A stretch of 64,000 nucleotides of DNA from Escherichia coli (GCF_022846255.1 NZ_AP025682.1); one strand, 5' to 3'. Numbered from the stretch's first letter, positions 50,907 to 64,000 are shown. Notes: generated by a model not told the origin, from the letters alone. Numbers and translations: made by a program.

Positions 50907-52109
50907 TCAACTCCTGTCATGGAAAAGTGGTTGCCAGAGGTCGATTAGCCCCTGCATCAAGCCACCGCGCCAACAAAGCGCATCATGTCCGCCGTCAACC
51001 TGACGCCAGAAAATGGATTCTTTTAGGGGGTGTAATTGCGCATACAGCGCCTGATTGGCCTGCATGATCATCGGCTCGCGAACACCCGCTTCCAGCACAA
51101 TGCGCAGACCTTCGGCGCTAACTTCACCAGTTTTTAGCTGTTCAAGTAACACGCCCTCTTGGTGCCCGCCCCGATGCGGCCACCAGTACGAACCTGACTG
51201 GCTTAATACACAGCCAAAGCGTTCAGGCCAGTGCAGTCCGGCATACAGCGCGGAAAGCCCACCAAAACTCTGTCCGGCAACCACGGTGCGATCGGCGCGA
51301 TCGCTAAAAGGGGCAATAGTTTTCACCAGGGGTAATAACTCTTGCTGTACTGCCAGCCAGAAATCCGCATTACACGGCAGTTCGTGGGCGCGGTGCGCGG
51401 TGTCGATAGCGTCGATCAACACATACACGGCGGGCGGAAGTTGCCGACGATGGGTCAGCGAAGTCAGCGCAGGCCAGACGGGCATACTCTGCGCCCAAAA
51501 TTCGCCATCAAGCAAAACTGCCAGCGGGCGTTCTTCTGCTGTTGCATCGCCGGTGGTAAAAATCCATACACGGCGTGAATTTTTCAACCGTTCACTTTTC
51601 CAGATAATTTCTTTGGCAGGCGTTTCTGGCGCTTGCGGACAATCCCATCCCGGTTGCAGAGACGCTTGCGGCATTTCGAGTGCAGAAACAGCGTGCCCGC
51701 GCCCGCCTTTCCAGCTTTGTGGATTCAGCGGATCGGCTATCGCCTGGGGTAATAGTTTTCGCCAGCCTTCGCGTAATTCGAGGCGATCGGGGGATGGTGC
51801 AGAAAAAATGTCATCGCGTTCAGTAGGAATAAAGCAGTAGCTGCCGCGCCAGTTGGCATTGAGTTGTGTCGTCCACTGCCAAACATCGGTTCCTGCAATT
51901 CGCTGCATCGACCGGGGCTGGCTGTTCTGATGGTGATCGGTCACGCCAGTGATATAGACCCATACGCGCTTTATCGTCGAGTATTCTTCAGAACCCTGGG
52001 GATCACGCCACCAGAAAGTGACCTCAAACATTTCGTCATTCAGACGTTGCCATTCCGGGCCATGTTTCGACTGCCACCAGCTCTCACTTCCTACTTTTAA
52101 CGCCGTCAC
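50907..52109 (-). CDS. fes: Ferric enterobactin esterase Fes
   Basis: 400 aa ORF from the most upstream in-frame start; esterase fold; upstream of ybdZ-entF. Confidence 0.88.
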   Translation of the reverse strand: MTALKVGSESWWQSKHGPEWQRLNDEMFEVTFWWRDPQGSEEYSTIKRVWVYITGVTDHHQNSQPRSMQRIAGTDVWQWTTQLNANWRGSYCFIPTERDDIFSAPSPDRLELREGWRKLLPQAIADPLNPQSWKGGRGHAVSALEMPQASLQPGWDCPQAPETPAKEIIWKSERLKNSRRVWIFTTGDATAEERPLAVLLDGEFWAQSMPVWPALTSLTHRRQLPPAVYVLIDAIDTAHRAHELPCNADFWLAVQQELLPLVKTIAPFSDRADRTVVAGQSFGGLSALYAGLHWPERFGCVLSQSGSYWWPHRGGHQEGVLLEQLKTGEVSAEGLRIVLEAGVREPMIMQANQALYAQLHPLKESIFWRQVDGGHDALCWRGGLMQGLIDLWQPLFHDRS

Positions 52110-52134
52110 ACCATAACCCCATGTTTACTGTGCA

Positions 52135-52185
52135 ATTTTTTATTGATTGCAGAAATATATTGATAATATTATTGATAACTATTTG
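52135..52185. promoter_or_regulatory. Overlapping Fur boxes in the divergent fes / fepA promoter region
   Basis: tattgattgcagaaatatattgataatattattgataactatt contains tandem GATAAT-type repeats. Confidence 0.8.
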
Positions 52186-52351
52186 CATTTGCAATAGCGT
52201 AATGGCGCGCCGTGGGAAGCGCGGACATTAATTAATCAGCTGCACTGCGTGTCTTTCAGGATCAAAGGTTTTCGCGGTAGCGGGATGCGTCGTGTTGATG
52301 ACGACCATGCCCGACAGTTGCAATTCGTGGCAAAAATGCAGGAATAAAACA

Positions 52352-54592
52352 ATGAACAAGAAGATTCATTCCCTGGCCTTGTTGGTCAATCTGGGGATTT
52401 ATGGGGTAGCACAGGCACAAGAGCCGACCGATACTCCTGTTTCACATGACGATACTATTGTTGTTACCGCCGCCGAGCAGAACTTGCAGGCGCCCGGCGT
52501 TTCGACCATCACCGCAGATGAAATCCGCAAAAACCCGGTTGCCCGCGATGTATCGGAGATTATCCGTACCATGCCTGGCGTTAACCTGACCGGTAACTCC
52601 ACCAGTGGTCAGCGTGGTAATAACCGACAGATTGATATTCGCGGCATGGGTCCGGAAAACACGCTGATTTTGATTGACGGCAAGCCGGTCAGCAGCCGTA
52701 ACTCTGTGCGTCAGGGCTGGCGTGGCGAGCGCGATACCCGTGGTGATACCTCCTGGGTGCCGCCTGAAATGATTGAACGTATTGAAGTTCTACGTGGTCC
52801 GGCAGCTGCGCGTTATGGCAACGGCGCGGCGGGCGGCGTGGTTAACATCATTACCAAAAAAGGCAGCGGTGAGTGGCACGGCTCCTGGGATGCTTATTTC
52901 AATGCGCCAGAACATAAAGAGGAAGGTGCCACCAAACGCACCAACTTCAGCCTGACCGGTCCGCTGGGCGACGAATTCAGCTTCCGCTTGTATGGCAACC
53001 TCGACAAAACCCAGGCTGACGCGTGGGATATCAACCAGGGCCATCAGTCCGCGCGTGCCGGAACGTATGCCACGACGTTACCAGCCGGGCGCGAAGGGGT
53101 GATCAACAAAGATATTAATGGCGTGGTGCGCTGGGACTTCGCGCCTCTGCAGTCACTCGAACTGGAAGCGGGCTACAGCCGCCAGGGTAACCTGTATGCG
53201 GGTGATACGCAGAACACCAACTCTGACGCTTACACTCGATCGAAATATGGCGATGAAACCAACCGCCTGTATCGCCAGAACTACTCGCTGACCTGGAACG
53301 GTGGCTGGGATAACGGCGTGACCACCAGCAACTGGGTGCAGTACGAACACACCCGTAACTCGCGTATTCCGGAAGGTCTGGCGGGCGGTACCGAAGGGAA
53401 ATTTAACGAAAAAGCGACGCAGGATTTTGTAGATATCGATCTTGATGACGTGATGCTGCACAGCGAAGTTAACCTGCCGATTGATTTCCTCGTAAACCAA
53501 ACGCTGACGCTGGGTACAGAGTGGAATCAGCAACGGATGAAGGACTTAAGTTCCAACACCCAGGCGCTGACCGGAACGAATACCGGCGGTGCTATTGATG
53601 GTGTGAGTGCCACCGACCGTAGCCCGTATTCAAAAGCAGAAATTTTCTCGCTATTTGCCGAAAACAATATGGAGCTGACTGACAGCACCATCGTAACGCC
53701 GGGGCTGCGTTTCGATCATCACAGTATTGTCGGCAATAACTGGAGTCCGGCTCTAAACATATCGCAAGGTTTAGGCGATGACTTCACGCTGAAAATGGGC
53801 ATTGCCCGTGCTTATAAAGCGCCGAGTCTGTACCAGACTAACCCAAACTACATTCTCTACAGTAAAGGTCAGGGCTGCTATGCCAGCGCGGGCGGCTGCT
53901 ATCTGCAAGGTAATGATGACCTGAAAGCGGAAACCAGCATCAACAAGGAGATTGGTCTGGAGTTCAAACGCGACGGCTGGCTGGCGGGCGTGACCTGGTT
54001 CCGTAACGATTATCGCAATAAGATTGAAGCGGGCTATGTGGCTGTAGGGCAAAACGCAGTCGGCACCGATCTCTATCAGTGGGATAACGTACCGAAAGCG
54101 GTGGTTGAAGGTCTGGAAGGATCGTTAAACGTACCGGTTAGCGAAACGGTGATGTGGACCAATAACATCACTTATATGCTGAAGAGTGAAAACAAAACCA
54201 CGGGCGACCGTTTGTCGATCATCCCGGAATATACGTTGAACTCAACGCTGAGCTGGCAGGCACGGGAAGATTTGTCGATGCAAACGACCTTCACCTGGTA
54301 CGGCAAGCAGCAGCCGAAGAAGTACAACTACAAAGGTCAGCCAGCGGTTGGACCGGAAACCAAAGAAATCAGTCCGTACAGCATTGTTGGCCTGAGCGCG
54401 ACCTGGGATGTGACCAAGAATGTCAGTCTGACCGGCGGCGTGGACAACCTGTTCGACAAACGTTTGTGGCGTGCGGGTAATGCCCAGACCACGGGCGATC
54501 TGGCAGGAGCCAACTATATCGCAGGTGCCGGGGCGTATACCTATAACGAGCCGGGACGTACGTGGTATATGAGCATTAATACTCACTTCTGA
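52352..54592 (+). CDS. fepA: TonB-dependent ferric enterobactin outer membrane receptor FepA
   Basis: 746 aa from MNKKIHSLALLVNLGIYGVAQA; TonB box DTIVVTA; C-terminal aromatic residue. Confidence 0.95.
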   Translation: MNKKIHSLALLVNLGIYGVAQAQEPTDTPVSHDDTIVVTAAEQNLQAPGVSTITADEIRKNPVARDVSEIIRTMPGVNLTGNSTSGQRGNNRQIDIRGMGPENTLILIDGKPVSSRNSVRQGWRGERDTRGDTSWVPPEMIERIEVLRGPAAARYGNGAAGGVVNIITKKGSGEWHGSWDAYFNAPEHKEEGATKRTNFSLTGPLGDEFSFRLYGNLDKTQADAWDINQGHQSARAGTYATTLPAGREGVINKDINGVVRWDFAPLQSLELEAGYSRQGNLYAGDTQNTNSDAYTRSKYGDETNRLYRQNYSLTWNGGWDNGVTTSNWVQYEHTRNSRIPEGLAGGTEGKFNEKATQDFVDIDLDDVMLHSEVNLPIDFLVNQTLTLGTEWNQQRMKDLSSNTQALTGTNTGGAIDGVSATDRSPYSKAEIFSLFAENNMELTDSTIVTPGLRFDHHSIVGNNWSPALNISQGLGDDFTLKMGIARAYKAPSLYQTNPNYILYSKGQGCYASAGGCYLQGNDDLKAETSINKEIGLEFKRDGWLAGVTWFRNDYRNKIEAGYVAVGQNAVGTDLYQWDNVPKAVVEGLEGSLNVPVSETVMWTNNITYMLKSENKTTGDRLSIIPEYTLNSTLSWQAREDLSMQTTFTWYGKQQPKKYNYKGQPAVGPETKEISPYSIVGLSATWDVTKNVSLTGGVDNLFDKRLWRAGNAQTTGDLAGANYIAGAGAYTYNEPGRTWYMSINTHF

Positions 54593-54631
54593 AGCTAACG
54601 TCAGATTGTTGACAAAGTGCGCGTAGTTCAT

Positions 54632-54666
54632 GCCGGATGCGGCGTGAACGCCTTATCCGGCCTACA
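54632..54666. repeat. REP element (first arm of a BIME) between fepA and entD
   Basis: gccggatgcggcgtgaacgccttatccggcctaca. Confidence 0.85.
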
Positions 54667-54701
54667 AAAAATCTTGCCAATTCAATATATTGCAGGACCA
54701 C

Positions 54702-54731
54702 GTAGGCCTGATAAGCGTAGCGCATCAGGCA
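54702..54731. repeat. Inverted REP element (second arm of the BIME)
   Basis: gtaggcctgataagcgtagcgcatcaggca, a REP in opposite orientation to 54632-54666. Confidence 0.8.
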
Positions 54732-54767
54732 GTTTTGCGTTTGTCATCATTCTCTAATATGGTTGAC

Positions 54768-55427
54768 ATGAAAACTACGCATACCTCCCTCCCCTTTGCA
54801 GGACATACGCTGCATTTTGTTGAGTTTGATCCGGCGAGTTTTCGCGAGCAGGATTTACTCTGGCTGCCGCACTACGCACAACTTCAACACGCTGGACGTA
54901 AACGTAAAACAGAGCATTTAGCCGGGCGGATCGCTGCAGTTTATGCGCTGCGGGAATATGGCTATAAATGTGTGCCCGCAATCGGCGAGCTACGCCAACC
55001 TGTGTGGCCTGCGGAGGTATACGGCAGCATTAGTCACTGTGGGACTACGGCATTAGCCGTGGTTTCCCGTCAACCGATTGGCATTGATATTGAAGAGATT
55101 TTCTCTGCACAAACCGCAAGAGAATTGACAGACAACATTATTACACCAGCAGAACACGAGCGACTCGCAGAATGCGGTTTAACCTTTTCTCTGGCGCTGA
55201 CACTGGCATTTTCCGCCAAAGAGAGCGCATTTAAGGCAAGTGAAATCCAAACTGATGCAGGTTTTCTGGACTATCAAATTGGAAATTGTCAGCATCAACA
55301 GATGAATATAAGCGGGCCGAATGGCGACCATATCGTGCAGTGGTTAGTAAGGGGTAATAATGTTATTACCTTGTGCCTGGTAGATAAACACCCGCACACT
55401 GCAGCATGCGGGTTATCTGGCGGGTAA
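54768..55427 (+). CDS. entD: Phosphopantetheinyl transferase EntD
   Basis: 219 aa from MKTTHTSLPFAGHTL (ORF open from 54690; MVDMKTT alternative start); PPTase motifs (GIDIEE; ESAFKA). Confidence 0.88.
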   Translation: MKTTHTSLPFAGHTLHFVEFDPASFREQDLLWLPHYAQLQHAGRKRKTEHLAGRIAAVYALREYGYKCVPAIGELRQPVWPAEVYGSISHCGTTALAVVSRQPIGIDIEEIFSAQTARELTDNIITPAEHERLAECGLTFSLALTLAFSAKESAFKASEIQTDAGFLDYQIGNCQHQQMNISGPNGDHIVQWLVRGNNVITLCLVDKHPHTAACGLSGG

Positions 55428-55428
55428 T

Positions 55429-56364
55429 TCAAAGCATTTCCCGTGCCTGAGCTGCAATTCCGGCAGCATCAAATCCATGATGCTGACGCAACCACCCACG
55501 ATCCGCCGCTGCGGCATATTCTCCATCCATAATGCCTGCGCGTTTTAATTTGATCCCCGTTCCGGCCTCTGCCAACACTTCCGCGACCAGGCTACCAAGG
55601 CCGCCATTGACGTTATGCTCTTCAACCGTCATCACTGCTTTGCATCCTTTTAACGCTGCCAGCAATGCTTTGGTGTCGCATGGGCGAATCGACGGTACGC
55701 TGACAACTGTAGCCGCGATACCAGACTGCGCTAAAAGTTCTGCGGCATCGACCACTTCATGAACGGTAGAGCCTGTGGCTACCAGCGCCAGTTCGCTGCC
55801 CTCGCGCAAAGTCACCACGGCACCTGGTACAAATCGGTAGTCCTCATCGTGGATTTCCGGCAGGGCTTTACCGTCCATACGGATATAAACAGGCCCCTGA
55901 TAGCGAAGAGCATAATCAATCACCTGACGGCACTCCCGAGGTGAAGACGGGGCAAAGATTTGAATATTGCCGAAACCACGCATAACCGCAATGTCATCAA
56001 TCGCATGATGCGTGCTCGCCAGCGGTCCATAACTCGCCCCGGCATTCAGACCAAACAATTTTACGTTGGTAAAGTTGTAGCAGACATCAACCTTGATTTG
56101 CTCGTTAGCGCGAGCGATAAGAAATGGCGCGGCATTGCAGGTAACAGCCACCTTGCCGCCCAGCGCCAGCCCGGCAGCGGCACCAACCATGCTCTGTTCG
56201 GCAATACCCACATTCACCAGTCGGTCAGGAAATTGCTTAATAAAGGGAGCAATTTTTGCCGTAGACGTTGAATCAGCCACTACAGGCACCAAATCGATCC
56301 CCTCATTTACGGCATCGATAAATGCCTGAACCATCACATTTGCCAGATGTTCACTGTTACGCAT
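55429..56364 (-). CDS. Transketolase C-terminal subunit (pyrimidine-binding and C-terminal domains) of a split transketolase
   Basis: 311 aa with transketolase Pyr/C-domain character; start overlaps the upstream N-subunit gene by 8 nt. Confidence 0.8.
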   Translation of the reverse strand: MRNSEHLANVMVQAFIDAVNEGIDLVPVVADSTSTAKIAPFIKQFPDRLVNVGIAEQSMVGAAAGLALGGKVAVTCNAAPFLIARANEQIKVDVCYNFTNVKLFGLNAGASYGPLASTHHAIDDIAVMRGFGNIQIFAPSSPRECRQVIDYALRYQGPVYIRMDGKALPEIHDEDYRFVPGAVVTLREGSELALVATGSTVHEVVDAAELLAQSGIAATVVSVPSIRPCDTKALLAALKGCKAVMTVEEHNVNGGLGSLVAEVLAEAGTGIKLKRAGIMDGEYAAAADRGWLRQHHGFDAAGIAAQAREML

Positions 56365-57187
56365 CTTTGAGTTCCTTCAGTGCCTGTTCAATTTCATCGC
56401 CTTTCGGCACCCGGTGATGCCATTCCGCACGCCCTTGTATAAAGGAAATGCCTGCCCCTTTAGTGGTGTGGGCAATCACCACATTCGGTTTGCCTTCCTG
56501 TTTAAGCCCTTCAAGCGTCGCGACAACCGAAGCCATATCATTGCCCTGACATTCGGTAACCTGCATACCGAATGCCAGCCATTTCTCTGCCAGAGGATCG
56601 GTGTTCATGATTTCGCGCGTTGGCCCGGCTAATTGCAGATTATTTTTGTCATTAATAATGACCAGGTTATCAAGCCCGTAATGCGCCGCCGCCAGTGCAG
56701 CTTCCCAGTTACTGCCCTCAGCCAGCTCACCATCGCCAGTAATTAAGAAGATACGACGACGGCTTTGACTTTTTTTCGCCGCCAGCGCAAGTCCTACAGC
56801 CACAGGGAAACCATGTCCCAGTGCTCCGGTATTCAGTTCAATACCTGGCGTTTTTTGCCGAACCGGATGGCCGGGTAAGTGTGAATTTGGCTGCTGATAA
56901 GTGGAAAGCCATTCCAGTGGGAAGAATCCTGCTTCCGCCAGCACGCAGTAGTAACATCCAACAGCATGGCCTTTTGACTGAATGTATATATCCCGGTCAT
57001 CGTCGTGAAGGCGATCCGGGGCGACATTGAGAATACGAAAATAGAGTGCGGTCAGTAATTCAACCTGAGAGAGATCGGCCCCAGTGTGTCCACCTGCCGG
57101 GCTATTGGCATTTAAGCGCACGATATGGCAGCGTACCGCCCGCGCTTTACGCTCAAGGGTCTGGATATCATAGCTATAGGGATTCAT
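56357..57187 (-). CDS. Transketolase N-terminal subunit (thiamine diphosphate-binding) of a split transketolase
   Basis: 276 aa; TPP-binding region (GHTGADLS... GDGELAEGSNWEA); SD agagg before ATG. Confidence 0.8.
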   Translation of the reverse strand: MNPYSYDIQTLERKARAVRCHIVRLNANSPAGGHTGADLSQVELLTALYFRILNVAPDRLHDDDRDIYIQSKGHAVGCYYCVLAEAGFFPLEWLSTYQQPNSHLPGHPVRQKTPGIELNTGALGHGFPVAVGLALAAKKSQSRRRIFLITGDGELAEGSNWEAALAAAHYGLDNLVIINDKNNLQLAGPTREIMNTDPLAEKWLAFGMQVTECQGNDMASVVATLEGLKQEGKPNVVIAHTTKGAGISFIQGRAEWHHRVPKGDEIEQALKELKDA

Positions 57188-57216
57188 TTAATACCTCTGA
57201 ATTTATTTTCAACATG

Positions 57217-57228
57217 GAATATTTATTC
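57217..57228. promoter_or_regulatory. Imperfect copy (GAATATTTATTC) of the island palindrome, 30 bp upstream of the transketolase start
   Basis: Near-palindromic 12-mer related to GAATATATATTC. Confidence 0.35.
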
Positions 57229-57366
57229 CACCGGGGACTAAAAAAACCAGAAATCCCAGGGCGTTGCGCGGCAAGACTTACGCTGCTGCATCATACTCAG
57301 GAACATTCTGCCTCCTTACACCGTCAGTTACGTGTCCGGGTAATCATCAGTTGACCTGATATCATC

Positions 57367-57382
57367 TTGAATATATATTCAA
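57367..57382. promoter_or_regulatory. Perfect 16-bp palindrome TTGAATATATATTCAA in the divergent transketolase / regulator promoter region; candidate operator
   Basis: Self-complementary 16-mer; core GAATATATATTC recurs at 58729-58740. Confidence 0.5.
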
Positions 57383-57549
57383 TAATGATTCTTTATTCAA
57401 TTATGCCGCCTGTTTTTTATTTTTGTCCATCGCTGATTTTAAGGATTGGTTAAAGTTAGAACTCCATCACACTTAACTGTCTTCTTTTTTCGCGTATGAT
57501 AAAAGCCTCTAAGATAAGGGCGGTACGTTAATGATTTACGGGGAAATAT

Positions 57550-58500
57550 ATGGCTAAGCAGGATGAACAGCGGCTACTGGTGAAGATCGCCACTCTTTAC
57601 TATCTTGAGGGGCGAAAACAGTCTGACATCGCCCAACTTCTCTCGCTTTCTCAGTCATTTATCTCCAGAGCGCTAACCCGTTGCCAGAAAGAAGGCGTGG
57701 TTAAAATCAGCGTTGTCCAGCCGTCAAATATCTTTCTCAATCTGGAAAAAGGCATTGAAGAGCGTTACGGCATTAAACAAGCGATTGTTGTCGATACCGA
57801 AGATGATGCCACTGACCATACCATTAAACGTGCTATCGGCTCTGCCGCCGCGCACTATCTGGAAACGCGTTTAAGACCAAAAGATTTCATTGGCGTCTCT
57901 TCCTGGAGTTCTACGATTCGCGCGATGGTCGATGAAGTTCACGCCCAAAACTTAAAAGCCAGCGGCGTTATTCAGCTGCTGGGCGGCGTGGGGCCAAACG
58001 GCAATGTGCAGGCAACTATTTTGACACAGACCCTGGCCCAGCATCTGAATTGCGAAGCCTGGTTGCTTCCTTCTCAAAGCATTGAAGGTTCGGTAGAAGA
58101 GAAAAAACGCCTGGTGGCAAGCCAGGATGTGGCTGACGTTATCGCCAGATTTGACGACGTCGATATCGCCATTGTCGGCATCGGTATCCTTGAACCCTCG
58201 CAGTTGCTAAAAACCTCGGGCAACTATTATCACGAGGATATGTTACAGGTACTGGCGGATCGCGGTGCTGTGGGCGATATCTGCCTGCACTACTACGATA
58301 AACATGGTCAGCCCGTGTTGCAGGACGATGAAGATCCAGTGATTGGTATGGCACTGGATAAAATCAAAAAATGCCCGAATGTGGTGGCACTGGCGGGCGG
58401 CAAAGACAAAGTTGCCGCCATCAAAGGCGCCATGCAGGGTGGTTATATTGATGTTTTGATCACTGATTTCCCCACCGCCAGAATGCTGATTGCGGATTAA
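57550..58500 (+). CDS. SorC/DeoR-family sugar-phosphate-responsive transcriptional regulator
   Basis: 316 aa; N-terminal HTH (QSDIAQLLSLSQSFISRAL) plus C-terminal sugar-phosphate-binding domain typical of SorC/LsrR-type regulators. Confidence 0.8.
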   Translation: MAKQDEQRLLVKIATLYYLEGRKQSDIAQLLSLSQSFISRALTRCQKEGVVKISVVQPSNIFLNLEKGIEERYGIKQAIVVDTEDDATDHTIKRAIGSAAAHYLETRLRPKDFIGVSSWSSTIRAMVDEVHAQNLKASGVIQLLGGVGPNGNVQATILTQTLAQHLNCEAWLLPSQSIEGSVEEKKRLVASQDVADVIARFDDVDIAIVGIGILEPSQLLKTSGNYYHEDMLQVLADRGAVGDICLHYYDKHGQPVLQDDEDPVIGMALDKIKKCPNVVALAGGKDKVAAIKGAMQGGYIDVLITDFPTARMLIAD

Positions 58501-58525
58501 TCCTCTCCTCCCTTTCTTCTGCCCG

Positions 58526-58553
58526 CCTTTGCGAAAAAATCTTCTCGCAAAGG
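58526..58553 (+). terminator. Stem-loop after the regulator gene (cctttgcga / tcgcaaagg)
   Basis: 9-bp inverted repeat with 10-nt loop; no clear T-tract. Confidence 0.35.
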
Positions 58554-58646
58554 CGCTTGCTTAAAAATCCTTTAATATCAATAAACTGAAATGATTCAAC
58601 AATCCTGTTTCTCGAGGCTTTCTCACCCTGTCACCACGCTTCTAAG

Positions 58647-58662
58647 TGTGATAGCCAGCACA
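58647..58662. promoter_or_regulatory. CRP-like site TGTGA-N6-GCACA upstream of the kinase/transporter operon
   Basis: tgtgatagccagcaca matches 9/10 of the consensus half-site positions; about 190 bp upstream of the kinase ATG. Confidence 0.45.
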
Positions 58663-58728
58663 TTTGATGATTTTTTCTCTAGCTCAGGAAGAATAATCTG
58701 GCTAAGGTATAAATAAATAATCAGCATC

Positions 58729-58740
58729 GAATATATATTC
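58729..58740. promoter_or_regulatory. Second copy of palindromic core GAATATATATTC, about 110 bp upstream of the kinase gene; candidate operator
   Basis: Exact repeat of the 12-bp palindromic core found at 57369-57380. Confidence 0.5.
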
Positions 58741-58850
58741 ACGCCTTAACACAAAATGTCACAGCAGGGCCTGATGAAGTAATAACGTGACCATGAGGAA
58801 CGCCTCATCTCCTTCCACGCCAGGATGCAATGTGACTCAGGAGACTACCT

Positions 58851-60371
58851 ATGTTTGCAGGAAATAAAGAGTTCGTTGTTGCGTTGGATGAGGGTACCAC
58901 CAATGTAAAAGCCATCGCACTTGATGGTTTCGGTAACGTGGTGGCGAAGTTTTCTCAACCACTGGCTATTCAGACGCCACGTGAAGGCTGGGTTGAGCAA
59001 TCCGGGGAAGCGTTAATCTCTGCCTCGCTTGATGTTATTGCCCAGGCCATCAACCACGTGGGGGCAGAAAATGTAGCGGCTCTGGCTATCAGTAATCAGC
59101 GTGAAACGGCTATCGGCTGGTATCGTCAGAGTGGAAAACCACTCAATGCGGCGATTACCTGGCAATGCACGCGCAGTGCAGAGTTTTGTGAAACACTTCG
59201 TCGCGAGGGCAAAGAGCAGCAAATTAAAACGACTACAGGCCTGCCTATCGCCCCGCTATTTTCCGCGTCCAAGATGCGTTGGCTACTGGAATCTACACCT
59301 GAGGGTGTGCAACTTGCCGACCAGGGTGAAATTTGTCTCGGCACCATTGATGCCTGGTTGCTATGGAACTTGACTGCTGGCGATTCATTTTGCTGCGACT
59401 ACTCTAACGCCGCGCGAACTCAATTACTTAACCTGAAAACAGGCGAGTGGGATGAGGAAATGCTGGCGTTGTTTCACATCCCACGCGCTGCATTGCCAGA
59501 AATTAAACCTTCCAGTGGCCTGTTCGGTTATACCCGAGGACTTAAAACAATTCCGGATGGTATTCCCGTCATGGCGATGGTGGGCGATTCTCACGCCGCT
59601 CTTTTTGGTCATGCGTTGGGAGAAGCGGGATGTGTGAAGGCGACCTATGGGACCGGTTCTTCCGTCATGGCCCCCGTCAACTCTGCTCAGTGTGATATCG
59701 CCACACTTGCCACAACCATTGCCTGGCATGATGGCGAAAATATTATTTACGGTCTGGAAGGAAATATCCCCCACACCGGCGATGCCGTGGCATGGATGGC
59801 TGACAGCACCGGTTTAAGTGAACTGACAGACGCGGAGCTGGCCCACGAACTGAATACCCTGCCAGCCTCAGTGGATTCGACTATGGGTGTTTATTTTGTT
59901 CCTGCTCTCACTGGCCTGGGCGCGCCATGGTGGGATGACAGCGCTCGCGGCGTGGTGTGTGGCTTAAGCCGTGGCGTAAAGCGCGCGCATTTGATTCGTG
60001 CCGCAATGGAATCAATCACTTATCAAATTGCAGATGTAGTGGAGGCAATGCAACAGCATGATGATTTTCACTTATCGGCGTTAATGGTGGATGGCGGCCC
60101 GACCAAAAATGACTGGTTGATGCAATATCAGGCGGATCTGCTGGGTTGCCCGGTGATGCGCAGTGATGTGCCAGAGCTTTCAGCCATTGGTGCGGGCCTG
60201 CTCGCCCGCAAAGCGCTTATCCCCGGTACCGTTGCAGATTTAAAAGCGTTATTAACTGAACACAGTGAATTTAAACCGGACATGGCGCGTCATCAGCGAC
60301 TGCAAAAGAGATGGCAGGAGTGGCGTCATGCGGTAAACAGAACATTATGGAAACCGGCATCGTCAATTTGA
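58851..60371 (+). CDS. FGGY-family carbohydrate kinase (xylulokinase / AI-2 kinase-like)
   Basis: 506 aa; FGGY N- and C-domain character; SD aggag before ATG. Confidence 0.8.
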   Translation: MFAGNKEFVVALDEGTTNVKAIALDGFGNVVAKFSQPLAIQTPREGWVEQSGEALISASLDVIAQAINHVGAENVAALAISNQRETAIGWYRQSGKPLNAAITWQCTRSAEFCETLRREGKEQQIKTTTGLPIAPLFSASKMRWLLESTPEGVQLADQGEICLGTIDAWLLWNLTAGDSFCCDYSNAARTQLLNLKTGEWDEEMLALFHIPRAALPEIKPSSGLFGYTRGLKTIPDGIPVMAMVGDSHAALFGHALGEAGCVKATYGTGSSVMAPVNSAQCDIATLATTIAWHDGENIIYGLEGNIPHTGDAVAWMADSTGLSELTDAELAHELNTLPASVDSTMGVYFVPALTGLGAPWWDDSARGVVCGLSRGVKRAHLIRAAMESITYQIADVVEAMQQHDDFHLSALMVDGGPTKNDWLMQYQADLLGCPVMRSDVPELSAIGAGLLARKALIPGTVADLKALLTEHSEFKPDMARHQRLQKRWQEWRHAVNRTLWKPASSI

Positions 60372-60474
60372 CGAACAAGACTAACCAACGGAAGGAGAAT
60401 ACCGGCCCATAAATAATTCAGGCTTTACGTTGTTTCACCGTACCCGACAATAACAACACAGAGAGAACATTGTC

Positions 60475-61410
60475 ATGAAATTACGTTTAACACTGTTAAC
60501 CGCTGCGACCCTGACTGCTCTTTCTTTTTCTGCTCATGCGGTAGAAAAAGGAACCATTATGATTATGGTCAATTCACTGGATAATCCTTATTACGCCTCG
60601 GAAGCGAAAGGTGCCAGTGAAAAAGCCCAGCAACTGGGATATAAAACGACCATTCTTTCTCATGGTGAAGATGTCAAAAAACAGAATGAACTGATCGATA
60701 CTGCAATTGGTAAAAAAGTTCAGGGCATTATTTTAGATAATGCCGACTCCACTGCCAGTGTTGCAGCCATTGAAAAAGCAAAAAAAGCAGGTATTCCCGT
60801 TATATTAATTAATCGCGAAATACCTGTGGATGATGTTGCACTGGTGCAAATTACCCATAATAACTTCCAGGCTGGCTCGGAAGTTGCCAACGTATTTGTC
60901 GAGAAAATGGGAGAGAAAGGAAAATATGCCGAACTCACCTGTAATCTTGCTGATAATAATTGCGTAACTCGCTCGAAATCTTTCCATCAGGTCATTGACC
61001 AGTTCCCTGAAATGGTCAGCGTGGCGAAGCAAGATGCCAAAGGCACGTTAATTGATGGCAAACGGATAATGGACAGTATTCTGCAAGCCCATCCCGATGT
61101 AAAAGGGGTGATTTGTGGTAATGGTCCGGTTGCACTGGGAGCTATCGCAGCACTGAAAGCAGCCAATCGCAATGACGTTATTGTTGTCGGCATTGATGGC
61201 AGTAACGATGAGCGCGATGCCGTGAAAGCCGAATCATTGCAGGCTACCGTGATGTTACAAGCGCAAGCCATTGCCGCGCAGGGGGTTACCGATTTGGATA
61301 ATTACCTGCAAAAAGGAGTTAAACCAGCCAAACAGCGGGTGATGTTCCGCGGCATTCTGATAACCAAAGATAACGCAGATAAAGTCCAGGATTTCAATAT
61401 CAAATCCTGA
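60475..61410 (+). CDS. Periplasmic sugar-binding protein of an ABC transporter (RbsB/LsrB-like)
   Basis: 311 aa; signal peptide ending SAHA; periplasmic binding protein type I fold features. Confidence 0.8.
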   Translation: MKLRLTLLTAATLTALSFSAHAVEKGTIMIMVNSLDNPYYASEAKGASEKAQQLGYKTTILSHGEDVKKQNELIDTAIGKKVQGIILDNADSTASVAAIEKAKKAGIPVILINREIPVDDVALVQITHNNFQAGSEVANVFVEKMGEKGKYAELTCNLADNNCVTRSKSFHQVIDQFPEMVSVAKQDAKGTLIDGKRIMDSILQAHPDVKGVICGNGPVALGAIAALKAANRNDVIVVGIDGSNDERDAVKAESLQATVMLQAQAIAAQGVTDLDNYLQKGVKPAKQRVMFRGILITKDNADKVQDFNIKS

Positions 61411-61456
61411 TCCCAGGTCGTTGCGCCCTCACAATGAGGGCGCAGAGGAGAATATT

Positions 61457-62077
61457 ATGGATAAAAAAGTCTGGCTGGCGCTGGCAATTCTGAGCCTGGG
61501 TGGATGTCGCATCGTCTCGCAGCAGGAACTTGCCGATCTCAAATCCCCGCCTAATCCTCATATGGCAAATATCGATCAGACCTGGCAGAAAAATATCGTG
61601 CCGCAGGTGGTAGAAAATGCACGTCCGGTTGCGGAGTTAATGGCGGCGCTACAGGCAGAAAAAGATGTCGATGCTGCCTGTAAAACGCTGGGCTATCGTT
61701 CTCAGGAAGAAAACCCGTGTATTTTCTACGTTAAGGTCGAAGGTGGCATCACCAATATTGATGCGAAATCCCGTAGCGGAAAAATGACCATCACAGATAT
61801 CAGCGGCACAAATATTGTCGTGCAGACGGGGCCAACTCTTCGCGGCACGCTTCTGCGAGATGCATATAAAGGTGCAAGCTATGAGCATTTTAACGATCAG
61901 GTTTTATTTGGTGAATATGGTCGTGCTATCAATGAGCAAGCCATCAATATGATTCAGTCGGCAAAGCTTAAAACCGGGGAAACGGTTCAGGTTTATGGCG
62001 TATTTTCTGCATGGGATATTCCGCAAACTATCCCGGATATAACGCCTGCGAAAATAGCCAGGGCGGGAGGCGAGTAA
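61457..62077 (+). CDS. Putative lipoprotein of unknown function embedded in the ABC transporter operon
   Basis: 206 aa from MDKKVWLALAILSLGGC (lipobox LGGC); AGGAG SD before this ATG; the ORF track entry starts 12 codons upstream. Confidence 0.55.
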   Translation: MDKKVWLALAILSLGGCRIVSQQELADLKSPPNPHMANIDQTWQKNIVPQVVENARPVAELMAALQAEKDVDAACKTLGYRSQEENPCIFYVKVEGGITNIDAKSRSGKMTITDISGTNIVVQTGPTLRGTLLRDAYKGASYEHFNDQVLFGEYGRAINEQAINMIQSAKLKTGETVQVYGVFSAWDIPQTIPDITPAKIARAGGE

Positions 62078-62078
62078 T

Positions 62079-63623
62079 ATGTTGCCGCAAGAAATTGACA
62101 CCCCCCAGACTGATGAATCACCTGTAATCATAGAAACGCATGACTTATCGCGTATTTATCCGGGTGTGGTGGCGTTAGATAACGTGAATTACCGTGTCTA
62201 TCGCAATAGAGTGAATGTGCTTATTGGTGAAAACGGTGCGGGTAAATCCACAATGATGAAAATGCTGGCGGGGGTTGAAACACCTTCCTCAGGCAAGATC
62301 ATTCTTGATGGTAAAGAAGTTACCCTAAATTCTACCCATCAGGCCGAAAAACATGGAATTAGTATCATTTTTCAGGAACTGAATTTATTCCCGAATATGA
62401 ATGTCATAGATAACATTTTCATGGCGAATGAATTTTTTCAGAAAGGGAAGATTAACGAAAAATATCAGTATGAATTAGCCAAATCTTTATTAGAGAGACT
62501 GGAGTTGGACGTTGATCCCTATACCCAACTGGGAGAACTTGGTATTGGTCATCAGCAACTGGTGGAGATTGCCCGTGCCCTTTCTAAAGATACCCGGGTA
62601 CTGATTATGGATGAACCGACCTCGGCCCTCAGCCAGTCGGAAGTCAAAGTACTTTTCAATGTGATCGCACAACTGAAGCGCCGTGGTGTCACCATCATTT
62701 ATATCTCCCACCGTCTGGAAGAGTTGATGGAGATTGGCGATTTCATCACCATTTTCCGTGATGGTCGCTTTATTAGTGAACGCGCAGTGAGCGATGCCAG
62801 TATTCCGTGGATCATCGCACAAATGGTCGGTGATAAGAAAAAACATTTTGATTATCAACCAGCTACACAAGGTGACACTGTACTGGCGGTACTGGGGTTA
62901 ACGGCGCTGCATCCCAGCGGTGGTTACAAACTCAATGATGTGACATTCAACCTGCGTAAAGGCGAAGTTATCGGCATTTACGGCTTGCTGGGCGCAGGAC
63001 GTACTGAGCTATTTAAAGGACTGGTGGGCCTGATGCCCTGTCAGAGTGGGAAGATCCTGCTTAATGGTGAAACCATCGACAAATGCCATTTCCAGGCGCG
63101 GCTCAAAAAGGGGCTGGCGTTGGTGCCAGAAGATCGCCAGGGCGAAGGCGTCGTTCAGATGATGTCGATTCAGTCCAATATGACGCTATCCGATTTCAGC
63201 CTGCAAGGTTTTCGCCGTGCCTGGAAATGGCTGAATCCGCAAAAAGAGAGCGCCAGTGTGAAAGAGATGATCCAGCAACTGGCGATCAAAGTCAGTGATG
63301 CCGAACTCCCTATTACCTCACTCAGCGGCGGTAACCAGCAAAAAGTGGTACTTGGCAAAGCGTTGATGACCCAGCCACAGGTGGTGTTTCTTGATGAACC
63401 CACACGCGGCATTGATGTTGGCGCAAAAACCGACGTCTATCAGCTGGTGGGAAAAATGGCACAACAGGGGCTGGCAGTCATGTTCTCTTCTTCAGAACTC
63501 GATGAAGTCATGGCACTGGCAGATCGCATTCTGGTGATGGCTGATGGCCGTATTACCGCTGATCTACCCCGGGGCGAAGTCACCCGAGAGAAACTGATCG
63601 CGGCTTCAACACCTCAAGATTAA
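62079..63623 (+). CDS. Sugar ABC transporter ATP-binding protein with duplicated ABC domains (RbsA-like)
   Basis: 514 aa; Walker A GENGAGKST in first domain, signature LSGGNQQK in second domain. Confidence 0.85.
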   Translation: MLPQEIDTPQTDESPVIIETHDLSRIYPGVVALDNVNYRVYRNRVNVLIGENGAGKSTMMKMLAGVETPSSGKIILDGKEVTLNSTHQAEKHGISIIFQELNLFPNMNVIDNIFMANEFFQKGKINEKYQYELAKSLLERLELDVDPYTQLGELGIGHQQLVEIARALSKDTRVLIMDEPTSALSQSEVKVLFNVIAQLKRRGVTIIYISHRLEELMEIGDFITIFRDGRFISERAVSDASIPWIIAQMVGDKKKHFDYQPATQGDTVLAVLGLTALHPSGGYKLNDVTFNLRKGEVIGIYGLLGAGRTELFKGLVGLMPCQSGKILLNGETIDKCHFQARLKKGLALVPEDRQGEGVVQMMSIQSNMTLSDFSLQGFRRAWKWLNPQKESASVKEMIQQLAIKVSDAELPITSLSGGNQQKVVLGKALMTQPQVVFLDEPTRGIDVGAKTDVYQLVGKMAQQGLAVMFSSSELDEVMALADRILVMADGRITADLPRGEVTREKLIAASTPQD

Positions 63624-63640
63624 TCAGGCTGGAATTTCTT

Positions 63641-64000
63641 ATGAATCAGAAATATATGATCTATATGTACCTGTTGAAAGCCAGAACGTTTATCGCTCTG
63701 CTGTTAGTGATCGCCTTCTTTAGCGTGATGGTGCCTAACTTCCTGACGGCCTCTAACCTGCTGATTATGACTCAACACGTTGCGATTACCGGGCTGCTGG
63801 CAATCGGAATGACGCTGGTGATCCTGACAGGCGGCATCGATCTTTCCGTCGGCGCGGTAGCGGGGATCTGCGGAATGGTTGCCGGGGCTCTGCTAACAAA
63901 CGGCCTGCCATTGTGGAGCGGCGATATTATTTTCTTCAACGTACCGGAAGTGATCCTCTGCGTGGCGGTATTTGGCATTTTAGTGGGACTGGTGAATGGT
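63641..64000 (+). CDS. Sugar ABC transporter permease (RbsC/AraH-like), N-terminal part; 3' end outside the window
   Basis: Open frame from ATG 63641 to the window end (120 codons, no stop); hydrophobic helices and a GGIDLSVG motif; absent from the ORF track because no stop is reached. Confidence 0.75.
   Translation, partial: MNQKYMIYMYLLKARTFIALLLVIAFFSVMVPNFLTASNLLIMTQHVAITGLLAIGMTLVILTGGIDLSVGAVAGICGMVAGALLTNGLPLWSGDIIFFNVPEVILCVAVFGILVGLVNG

Follow-up and report, generated by a model that had tools for sequence, protein, structure and literature searches.

A Gene Cluster Beside entD in Escherichia coli That Very Probably Corresponds to the Published D-Apiose Utilisation Island

Results and Discussion

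The Gene Cluster Adjoining entD

The DNA analysed in this work, called the window below, is a stretch of 64,000 nucleotides from Escherichia coli (GCF_022846255.1, NZ_AP025682.1), and the subject is the gene cluster that follows the enterobactin gene entD and runs up to the window end. A listing of the open reading frames (ORFs) at positions 52000–64000 showed fes (minus strand), fepA (plus) and entD (plus), followed by aptB. The complete gene order of the cluster is aptB–aptA (a split transketolase), a SorC-family regulator, the FGGY kinase gene aplK, a periplasmic solute-binding protein (SBP), a DUF2291 lipoprotein, the ATPase and the permease of an ATP-binding cassette (ABC) importer, and two short-chain dehydrogenases/reductases (SDR1 and SDR2), the last two lying beyond the window end and both being present in the closest complete genomes. 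A previous reading of this DNA made without database searches (the sequence-only reading) had proposed a divergent pair of operons, which was confirmed, and every ORF that it had named was found present, intact, correctly placed and correctly typed by the ORF listing and the NCBIfam matches.

The eight window proteins that are comparable with ECSF_RS02680–02715 of strain SE15 were 97.9–100% identical to them, of equal length and colinear, adjoining entD. Since the SE15 genes are the reference cluster of a study published in J Bacteriol in 2026 (PMC13001218), the segment is assigned to the published D-apiose utilisation island of Escherichia, beside entD, with a probability that we place at about 0.85. 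The reference cluster extends over ECSF_RS02670–02715, with aplK as RS02700, aptA as RS02710 and aptB as RS02715; near-identity to these genes, aplK, aptA and aptB included, within 10 consecutive coding sequences is the mark of membership in this cluster. The D-apiose degradation cluster lay, in every case, downstream of the genes for enterobactin, with entD apparently part of the acquired region, and it was present in 100% of the ST131 and STc14 genomes, in a small number of other B2 sequence types and in about one quarter of E. fergusonii. D-Apiose as sole carbon source supported the growth of carriers belonging to ST131 (clades C1 and C2), ST1193 and E. fergusonii, and not that of K-12. According to the same paper, the pathway in E. 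coli had already been proposed by Carter et al. 2018 from sequence similarity, and it is described for the Pectobacterium carotovorum cluster (Carter et al. 2018 cited there; MetaCyc PWY-8089, D-apiose degradation I).

The locus is already known, not new, and its significance has been published as well: the pandemic extraintestinal pathogenic E. coli clones ST131 and STc14 are marked as lineages by the island, which probably also defines their niche by giving them the use, in the gut, of D-apiose, a sugar of plant cell walls (pectin). The sequence-only reading had held that the substrate could not be deduced, which is superseded by the identification of the locus, at this very entD junction, as the D-apiose cluster of ST131/STc14 and E. 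fergusonii, and the novelty that it had made dependent on the locus not being annotated already with an experimentally established substrate is removed by PMC13001218. Its expectation of a dedicated split transketolase that cleaves a ketose after import and phosphorylation coincides with the published apulose-4-phosphate transketolase route. AptA, AptB, AplK and the apiose SBP are not covered by any model of NCBIfam release 20; the RefSeq names for the locus are for this reason only generic, hence its apparent unfamiliarity in that reading.

Extent and Distribution of the Island

At least 80% of positions 55000–64000 was held by 629 of the 5426 complete E. coli genomes compared by megablast, and in K-12 IS186/hokE stands after entD in place of the island, in agreement with the accessory status proposed before. 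A core segment of the window was found in 5418 genomes with identity up to 99.7%, which identifies the window as E. coli; an origin from E. fergusonii had been considered and was rejected on this ground. The best match of the island copy among the 5426 genomes was only 99.0%, and the E. coli lineage of the window is therefore poorly represented among them. Nucleotide divergence between the window island and the SE15 cluster was about 1.4%.

Homology to K-12 ended at window position 55276, inside entD (BLAST; locus L001, position 14277), nucleotide identity dropping at about this point from 26–30 of 30 per bin to about 50%. It reappeared after 11,109 bp, in the 92 bp that precede the K-12 IS186 insertion, and 131 bp at the entD–hokE junction are thus replaced by an island of 11.1 kb, with a loss that includes the last ~37 entD codons. 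The acquired DNA begins at about 55277, inside entD, and the start previously set at 55429 was about 150 nt too far to the right. By comparison with K-12, the acquired segment opens with the divergent 3′ end of entD (55277–55427, plus strand), and the final codons of the window entD, about 50 of them, are acquired DNA. The alignment of EntD with the K-12 protein diverges past ...GFLDYQI, and the tail found here, which ends in ...GNCQHQQMNISGPNGDHIVQWLVRGNNVITLCLVDKHPHTAACGLSGG, makes the protein 13 residues longer than K-12 EntD. The 3′ end of entD differs from that of SE15 by one residue and shows the same divergence from K-12. The entD stop codon is 1 nt from the aptB stop codon on the opposite strand.

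The complete islands of AF16 and SE15 continue with the remainder of a single permease gene and the two SDR genes, followed by hokE and ybdK. From the genes that had been expected beyond the window, the dehydrogenases are thus present as two SDRs, and neither a second permease nor an isomerase is encoded in the AF16 and SE15 islands. At the right end of the island the hokE/sokE segment is tandemly duplicated, giving two hokE copies in AF16 and SE15 (locus L001, 25387–26145). AF16, whose genome is the closest to the window, carries a frameshift in the ATPase gene (locus L001, 21080–22625), the window copy being intact, and in DETEC-P793 (NZ_CP116115.1) an element of the ISApl1 family interrupts the island region; the island is decaying in some strains. 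An Rfam search found nothing inside the island. Outside it, the fepA–entD spacer (54626–54709) matched ES036 with 42 bits, above the gathering score, and naRNA4 below the gathering score, both being REP-type repeat/small RNA families.

The Split Transketolase and the FGGY Kinase

In the NCBIfam profile search of the window ORFs every match lay below the curated equivalog cut-off, so that the matches make the family certain and do not give the specific function. AptB (311 amino acids, 55429–56364, minus strand), the C-terminal subunit with the pyrimidine-binding and C-domains, matched the transketolase model over profile positions 338–623 (E 2.3e-54). AptA (276 amino acids, 56357–57187, minus strand), the N-terminal, thiamine-diphosphate-binding subunit, matched the same model with E 1.7e-71, and it also matched PDB 6yak, "N-terminal component of the split chain transketolase", with E 5e-74. 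The two genes overlap by 8 nt. AptB was 99.7% identical to ECSF_RS02715 and 72% to AptB of P. carotovorum, the corresponding values for AptA being 98.9% (ECSF_RS02710) and 78.5%.

The positions aligned with H26, H66, H100, D155, N185, H261, E411 and H473 of TktA are kept in all the split transketolases compared, which have one active-site residue pattern in common; between the window subunits and those of P. carotovorum the residues agree at 16 aligned active-site positions. The sugar-phosphate-binding residues R358, S385, H461 and R520 of TktA are not conserved at the aligned positions, where the split transketolases have a pattern of their own in common, a tentative result given that the alignment to TktA has 26% identity. 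From orthology and residue pattern, AptA/AptB is predicted to be a split apulose-4-phosphate transketolase.

The putative apulose kinase of the aplK type (506 amino acids, 58851–60371, plus strand) matched the GlpK model best (E 8.6e-149), and the transketolase and FGGY signatures that the sequence-only reading had counted on were both recovered. The kinase was 99.2% identical to ECSF_RS02700 (aplK). Residues R83, E84, W103 and D245 of GlpK are kept in the kinases of the Enterobacterales variants, the window kinase included, and the changes Y135L and Q246S relative to GlpK were found in all the Enterobacterales kinase variants compared, that of P. carotovorum included; the Paraburkholderia kinase retains Y135. 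A further change, F270S, appeared in a five-sequence alignment only, the other alignment having a gap at this position. The pocket pattern is consistent with a glycerol-like but larger substrate, for example apulose. An identity of the kinase with GlpK itself was rejected (496 bits against a cut-off of 590, with Y135L and Q246S altered).

A spare general transketolase, accompanied by a ribose/glycerol uptake and kinase set and boosting the pentose-phosphate pathway, would agree with the PGAP names ("D-ribose ABC transporter SBP", "transketolase", "FGGY kinase") and with GlpK as the best model for the kinase. This explanation is very improbable: all the equivalog cut-offs are missed, the glycerol-pocket residues are altered, the sugar-phosphate residues of TktA are not kept in the low-identity alignment mentioned above, and the locus has its own dedicated regulator.

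The ABC Importer

The SBP (311 amino acids, 60475–61410, plus strand) is the periplasmic component of a CUT2-type ABC importer, with an RbsB-like match (E 2e-43), and was 99.7% identical to ECSF_RS02695. Its nearest structures were 5ibq and 4ry0, both of Rhizobium etli RHE_PF00037, an Enzyme Function Initiative target (E 2e-79, 48–49% identity). We take 5ibq to be a complex with D-apiose; the matched entries give molecule names only, the title of 4ry0 has no ligand in it, and the single paper found to cite 5IBQ does not mention the ligand. The second-best structural relative was the ribose-binding protein of Thermotoga maritima (2fn8), presumably TM0958, whose gene would be the neighbour of that for TM0957.

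The DUF2291 (PF10054) lipoprotein (206 amino acids, 61457–62077 with an alternative ORF start at 61421, plus strand) was 100% identical to ECSF_RS02690, named "DUF2291 family protein" in RefSeq. An NCBIfam search gave no match for the 206-residue ORF; PF10054 is recorded on its identical cluster representative. The protein has the lipobox LSLGGC, and its AlphaFold (AF2) model (pLDDT 87) has helices in its N-terminal part and, after them, an OB-like barrel. The best fold match of the model was T. maritima TM0957 (2f4i), a structural-genomics "OB-fold protein", with TM-scores of 0.62/0.70. In all the cluster variants seen with this transporter type the gene lies between those for the SBP and the ATPase, and DUF2291 probably belongs to this branch of CUT2 importers as a conserved accessory. 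A literature search on DUF2291 returned nothing relevant.

The ABC ATPase (514 amino acids, 62079–63623, plus strand) has two nucleotide-binding domains, matched xylose/ribose-type ATPase models (E 1.5e-162) and was 97.9% identical to ECSF_RS02685. Its gene (window 62000–63000) is the part of the cluster most diverged from SE15, with 11 amino-acid changes and 20 nucleotide differences at 62500–62999, most other 500-nt bins having 2–9; local recombination or relaxed constraint may account for this. The ABC permease is cut by the window end after the first 120 of 355 codons (63641–64000, plus strand) and was 99.2% identical over these 120 residues to ECSF_RS02680. Its full-length homologue matched RbsC-type models.

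Two candidate identities for the transport genes were rejected. For the ribose transporter RbsABC, all the scores fell under the cut-offs (RbsB 149 of 337 bits, RbsA 505 of 745, RbsC 273 of 398). For an erythritol locus of the EryABCD/EryEFG type, the genes for EryB (a FAD dehydrogenase), EryC (a TIM barrel) and the isomerases are not in the island, and the automatic JGI label on SBP homologues is the one pointer towards such a locus.

The Regulator and the Control Regions

The SorC-family regulator (316 amino acids, 57550–58500, plus strand), with the sugar-binding domain PF04198, matched the NCBIfam models of the DeoR-Bacillus type with E 2.4e-59 and of LsrR with E 1.5e-39, short of the cut-off in each case. 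It was 99.7% identical to ECSF_RS02705, and its identity to the regulator of P. carotovorum was 70%. Between aptA and the regulator gene, the divergent control region (57188–57549) contains three TGAAT-N4-ATTCA palindromes, at 57198–57211, 57368–57381 and 57386–57399; it is 83% conserved across E. coli, Citrobacter and Salmonella, with invariant blocks that include TGAATATATATTCA. The region upstream of the kinase/transporter operon (58647–58741, plus strand) carries one operator-like palindrome, CGAATATATATTCA, at 58728–58741, and a CRP-like site, TGTGATAGCCAGCACA, at 58647–58662, which is recognised by resemblance to the consensus only.

With up to one mismatch, TGAAT-N4-ATTCA had six matches in the 64-kb window, four of them in the two control regions of the island (57198, 57368, 57386 and 58728). 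In the Pectobacterium locus all four matches, which form pairs spaced 18 nt apart, stood immediately upstream of the SBP gene and of aptA, and 0 of 100 shuffles reached four matches. Exact copies of the palindrome among 14 loci occurred in SorC-type clusters only, within or immediately beside promoter regions, and none was found in the DeoR-type clusters or the K-12 control loci of this set. The motif is thus a candidate operator of the SorC regulator.

After the regulator gene there is a hairpin (58524–58555, plus strand; inverted repeat with 14-nt arms, 93% complementary, and a 4-nt loop) which resembles a weak terminator; a simple terminator scan does not call it, and its terminator function is putative. 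A scan for sigma-70 promoters gave five sites against 6.5 expected from shuffled sequence, and no promoter is claimed.

The lsr loci likewise combine, in divergent units, a SorC regulator with an FGGY kinase and a CUT2 ABC importer, and the resemblance to them pointed out by the sequence-only reading holds for the architecture. It does not extend to family identity, the scores lying far below the cut-offs for LsrR (136 of 486 bits), LsrK (64 of 528), LsrB (35 of 384) and LsrA (403 of 586), and genes for LsrF and LsrG not being in the island. A system that takes up a signal molecule (autoinducer-2, for instance), phosphorylates it and breaks it down would moreover have no place for a dedicated transketolase and two SDRs in the processing of that molecule, and we regard such a system as next to negligible as an explanation.

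Two Oxidoreductases and the Proposed Pathway

The complete islands of AF16, SE15 and Citrobacter amalonaticus contain no gene for a xylose-isomerase-like TIM barrel of the ApsI kind, and have two SDR genes there. SDR1 has the glycine motif TGACRGIG and no acidic residue where strand beta-2 ends, whereas SDR2 has TGAGSGIG and, in ...VVCFD, an Asp at this place. In classical SDRs the glycine motif and the residue at the end of strand beta-2 indicate the coenzyme. By these rules SDR1 is predicted to prefer NADP(H) and SDR2 NAD(H). PDB searches with both proteins gave generic SDR relatives only, without a close characterised one; galactitol and polyol dehydrogenases were among the nearer solved relatives of SDR2, and were not the nearest. 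The likeliest role of the pair would be the conversion of apiose to apiitol and of apiitol to apulose, a solution which fits the analogy of the fungal xylose reductase/xylitol dehydrogenase pair as opposed to the bacterial xylose isomerase. A literature search on apiitol returned nothing relevant. The absence of the isomerase ApsI is reported in PMC13001218, where two putative oxidoreductases are hypothesised as its replacement.

The pathway proposed from these assignments would start with the uptake of D-apiose by the binding-protein-dependent ABC importer, as the reported growth of carriers suggests. In the cytoplasm, the two SDRs would convert apiose to apulose, most likely by an NADPH-linked reduction to apiitol and a subsequent NAD-linked oxidation at C2, and would stand in for ApsI of Pectobacterium. 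The GlpK-like FGGY kinase, judged by homology and pocket residues, would phosphorylate apulose to apulose-4-phosphate, from which AptA/AptB, by orthology to the P. carotovorum cluster, would transfer the C1–C2 ketol unit to glyceraldehyde-3-phosphate, giving xylulose-5-phosphate and dihydroxyacetone phosphate. The SorC protein may repress both divergent units through TGAAT-N4-ATTCA and be released by a pathway intermediate, probably apulose-4-phosphate, and the CRP-like site may add catabolite control.

Several findings weigh against the assignment of the island to D-apiose. The island lacks the isomerase ApsI, one of the enzymes that define the characterised pathway, and the kinase (44–45%), the SBP (45%), the ATPase (49%) and the DUF2291 protein (29%) are only distant relatives of the Pectobacterium proteins. 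The window SBP differs from the type of 5ibq and Pectobacterium at five of the 11 positions that contact ribose in RbsB (F15Y, F16Y, D89N, W164G and Q235L), the other six being as in 5ibq; the Pectobacterium and Yersinia SBPs agree with 5ibq at all 11 positions, and the Dickeya and Paraburkholderia SBPs have a pocket pattern identical to that of the window. The JGI annotation names the SBP homologues "erythritol transport system substrate-binding protein", which is an automatic orthology label. Finally, the growth evidence of PMC13001218 is correlative, comparing carriers with K-12 without deletion or complementation.

A chimeric island running a biochemically undescribed route, in which an NADP-type and an NAD-type SDR acting by way of apiitol replace the apiose isomerase, is an extension of the D-apiose assignment that we hold tentatively, at slightly less than even odds. 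The SBP, the kinase lineage and the DUF2291 protein being unlike the characterised ones, the ligand range of such a route could exceed apiose and include apiitol or other branched polyols.

Comparison with Known Clusters

The P. carotovorum cluster also holds the genes for the SBP, the DUF2291 protein, the ATPase, the permease, AptA, AptB, an FGGY kinase and a SorC regulator, together with the TGAAT-N4-ATTCA motif. It differs from the island by a protein of the AP_endonuc_2 fold (the isomerase ApsI) instead of the two SDRs and by another gene order. The full-length permease is 54% identical to that of P. carotovorum, and the kinase and transporter proteins overall are 29–54% identical.

Homologues of the window SBP led to two further clusters, both uncharacterised, in Dickeya solani (locus L013, 6231–16612) and Paraburkholderia (locus L014, 6318–16650), which have the order DeoR regulator, split transketolase, SDR, SBP, DUF2291, ATPase, permease, FGGY kinase and SDR. 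Identity of the window proteins to those of Dickeya was 87% for the SBP, 86% for the permease, 85% for SDR1, 82% for the ATPase, 67% for the kinase and 66% for DUF2291. The split transketolase subunits of Dickeya were only 45–47% identical to those of the window (45–52% for Dickeya and Paraburkholderia together), and both clusters differ from the island by their DeoR-type regulator, by a second SDR unrelated to SDR2 (34%) and by the absence of the operator motif.

A further variant was found in Salmonella enterica. Its transketolase (82%), SorC regulator (87%), kinase (71%) and SDR2 (86%) are close to those of the window and the operator motif is present, but in place of the ABC system it has a transporter of the major facilitator superfamily (MFS_2), SDR1 is missing, and the chromosomal site is another one.

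These relatives bear on the question whether the Escherichia/Citrobacter version serves primarily a related substrate, such as apiitol or another small or branched polyol. An SDR would oxidise this substrate to a ketose, which the transketolase would cleave after its phosphorylation, and growth on D-apiose would be a side capacity. The 67–87% identity of transporter, kinase and SDR1 to a Dickeya-type cluster with a different split transketolase (45–49%) and a DeoR regulator would suit this explanation, as would the variant SBP pocket conserved in Dickeya and Paraburkholderia, the erythritol-transport names given to the SBP homologues, and the single SDR with an MFS transporter in Salmonella, which fits a polyol substrate, and the correlative nature of the published growth evidence. 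It is nevertheless unlikely. Three unrelated carriers, E. fergusonii among them, grow on D-apiose and K-12 does not; the transketolase, the regulator and the operator are common to the island and the Pectobacterium apiose cluster; genes of the eryB/C/H/I type are not present in the island, and the erythritol names are assigned automatically. D-Apiose is retained as the substrate of the island at the probability given at the outset.

Homologues of the transketolase, the SBP and DUF2291 were also found, as protein matches, in Klebsiella, Raoultella and other Enterobacterales.

From the identity patterns towards the Salmonella/Pectobacterium and the Dickeya clusters, the Escherichia island is read at the protein level as a mosaic of two modules, one comprising the transketolase, the SorC regulator and SDR2, of the Salmonella/Pectobacterium kind, and the other the kinase, the transporter and SDR1, of the Dickeya kind. 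The same ten genes are found in C. amalonaticus at the same entD junction, with 76–84% nucleotide identity (locus L004, 776–12386), in agreement with the statement of PMC13001218 that no genome outside Escherichia exceeds 90%. Either the junction shared by Escherichia and C. amalonaticus is old, or the island moves by recombination in the flanks.

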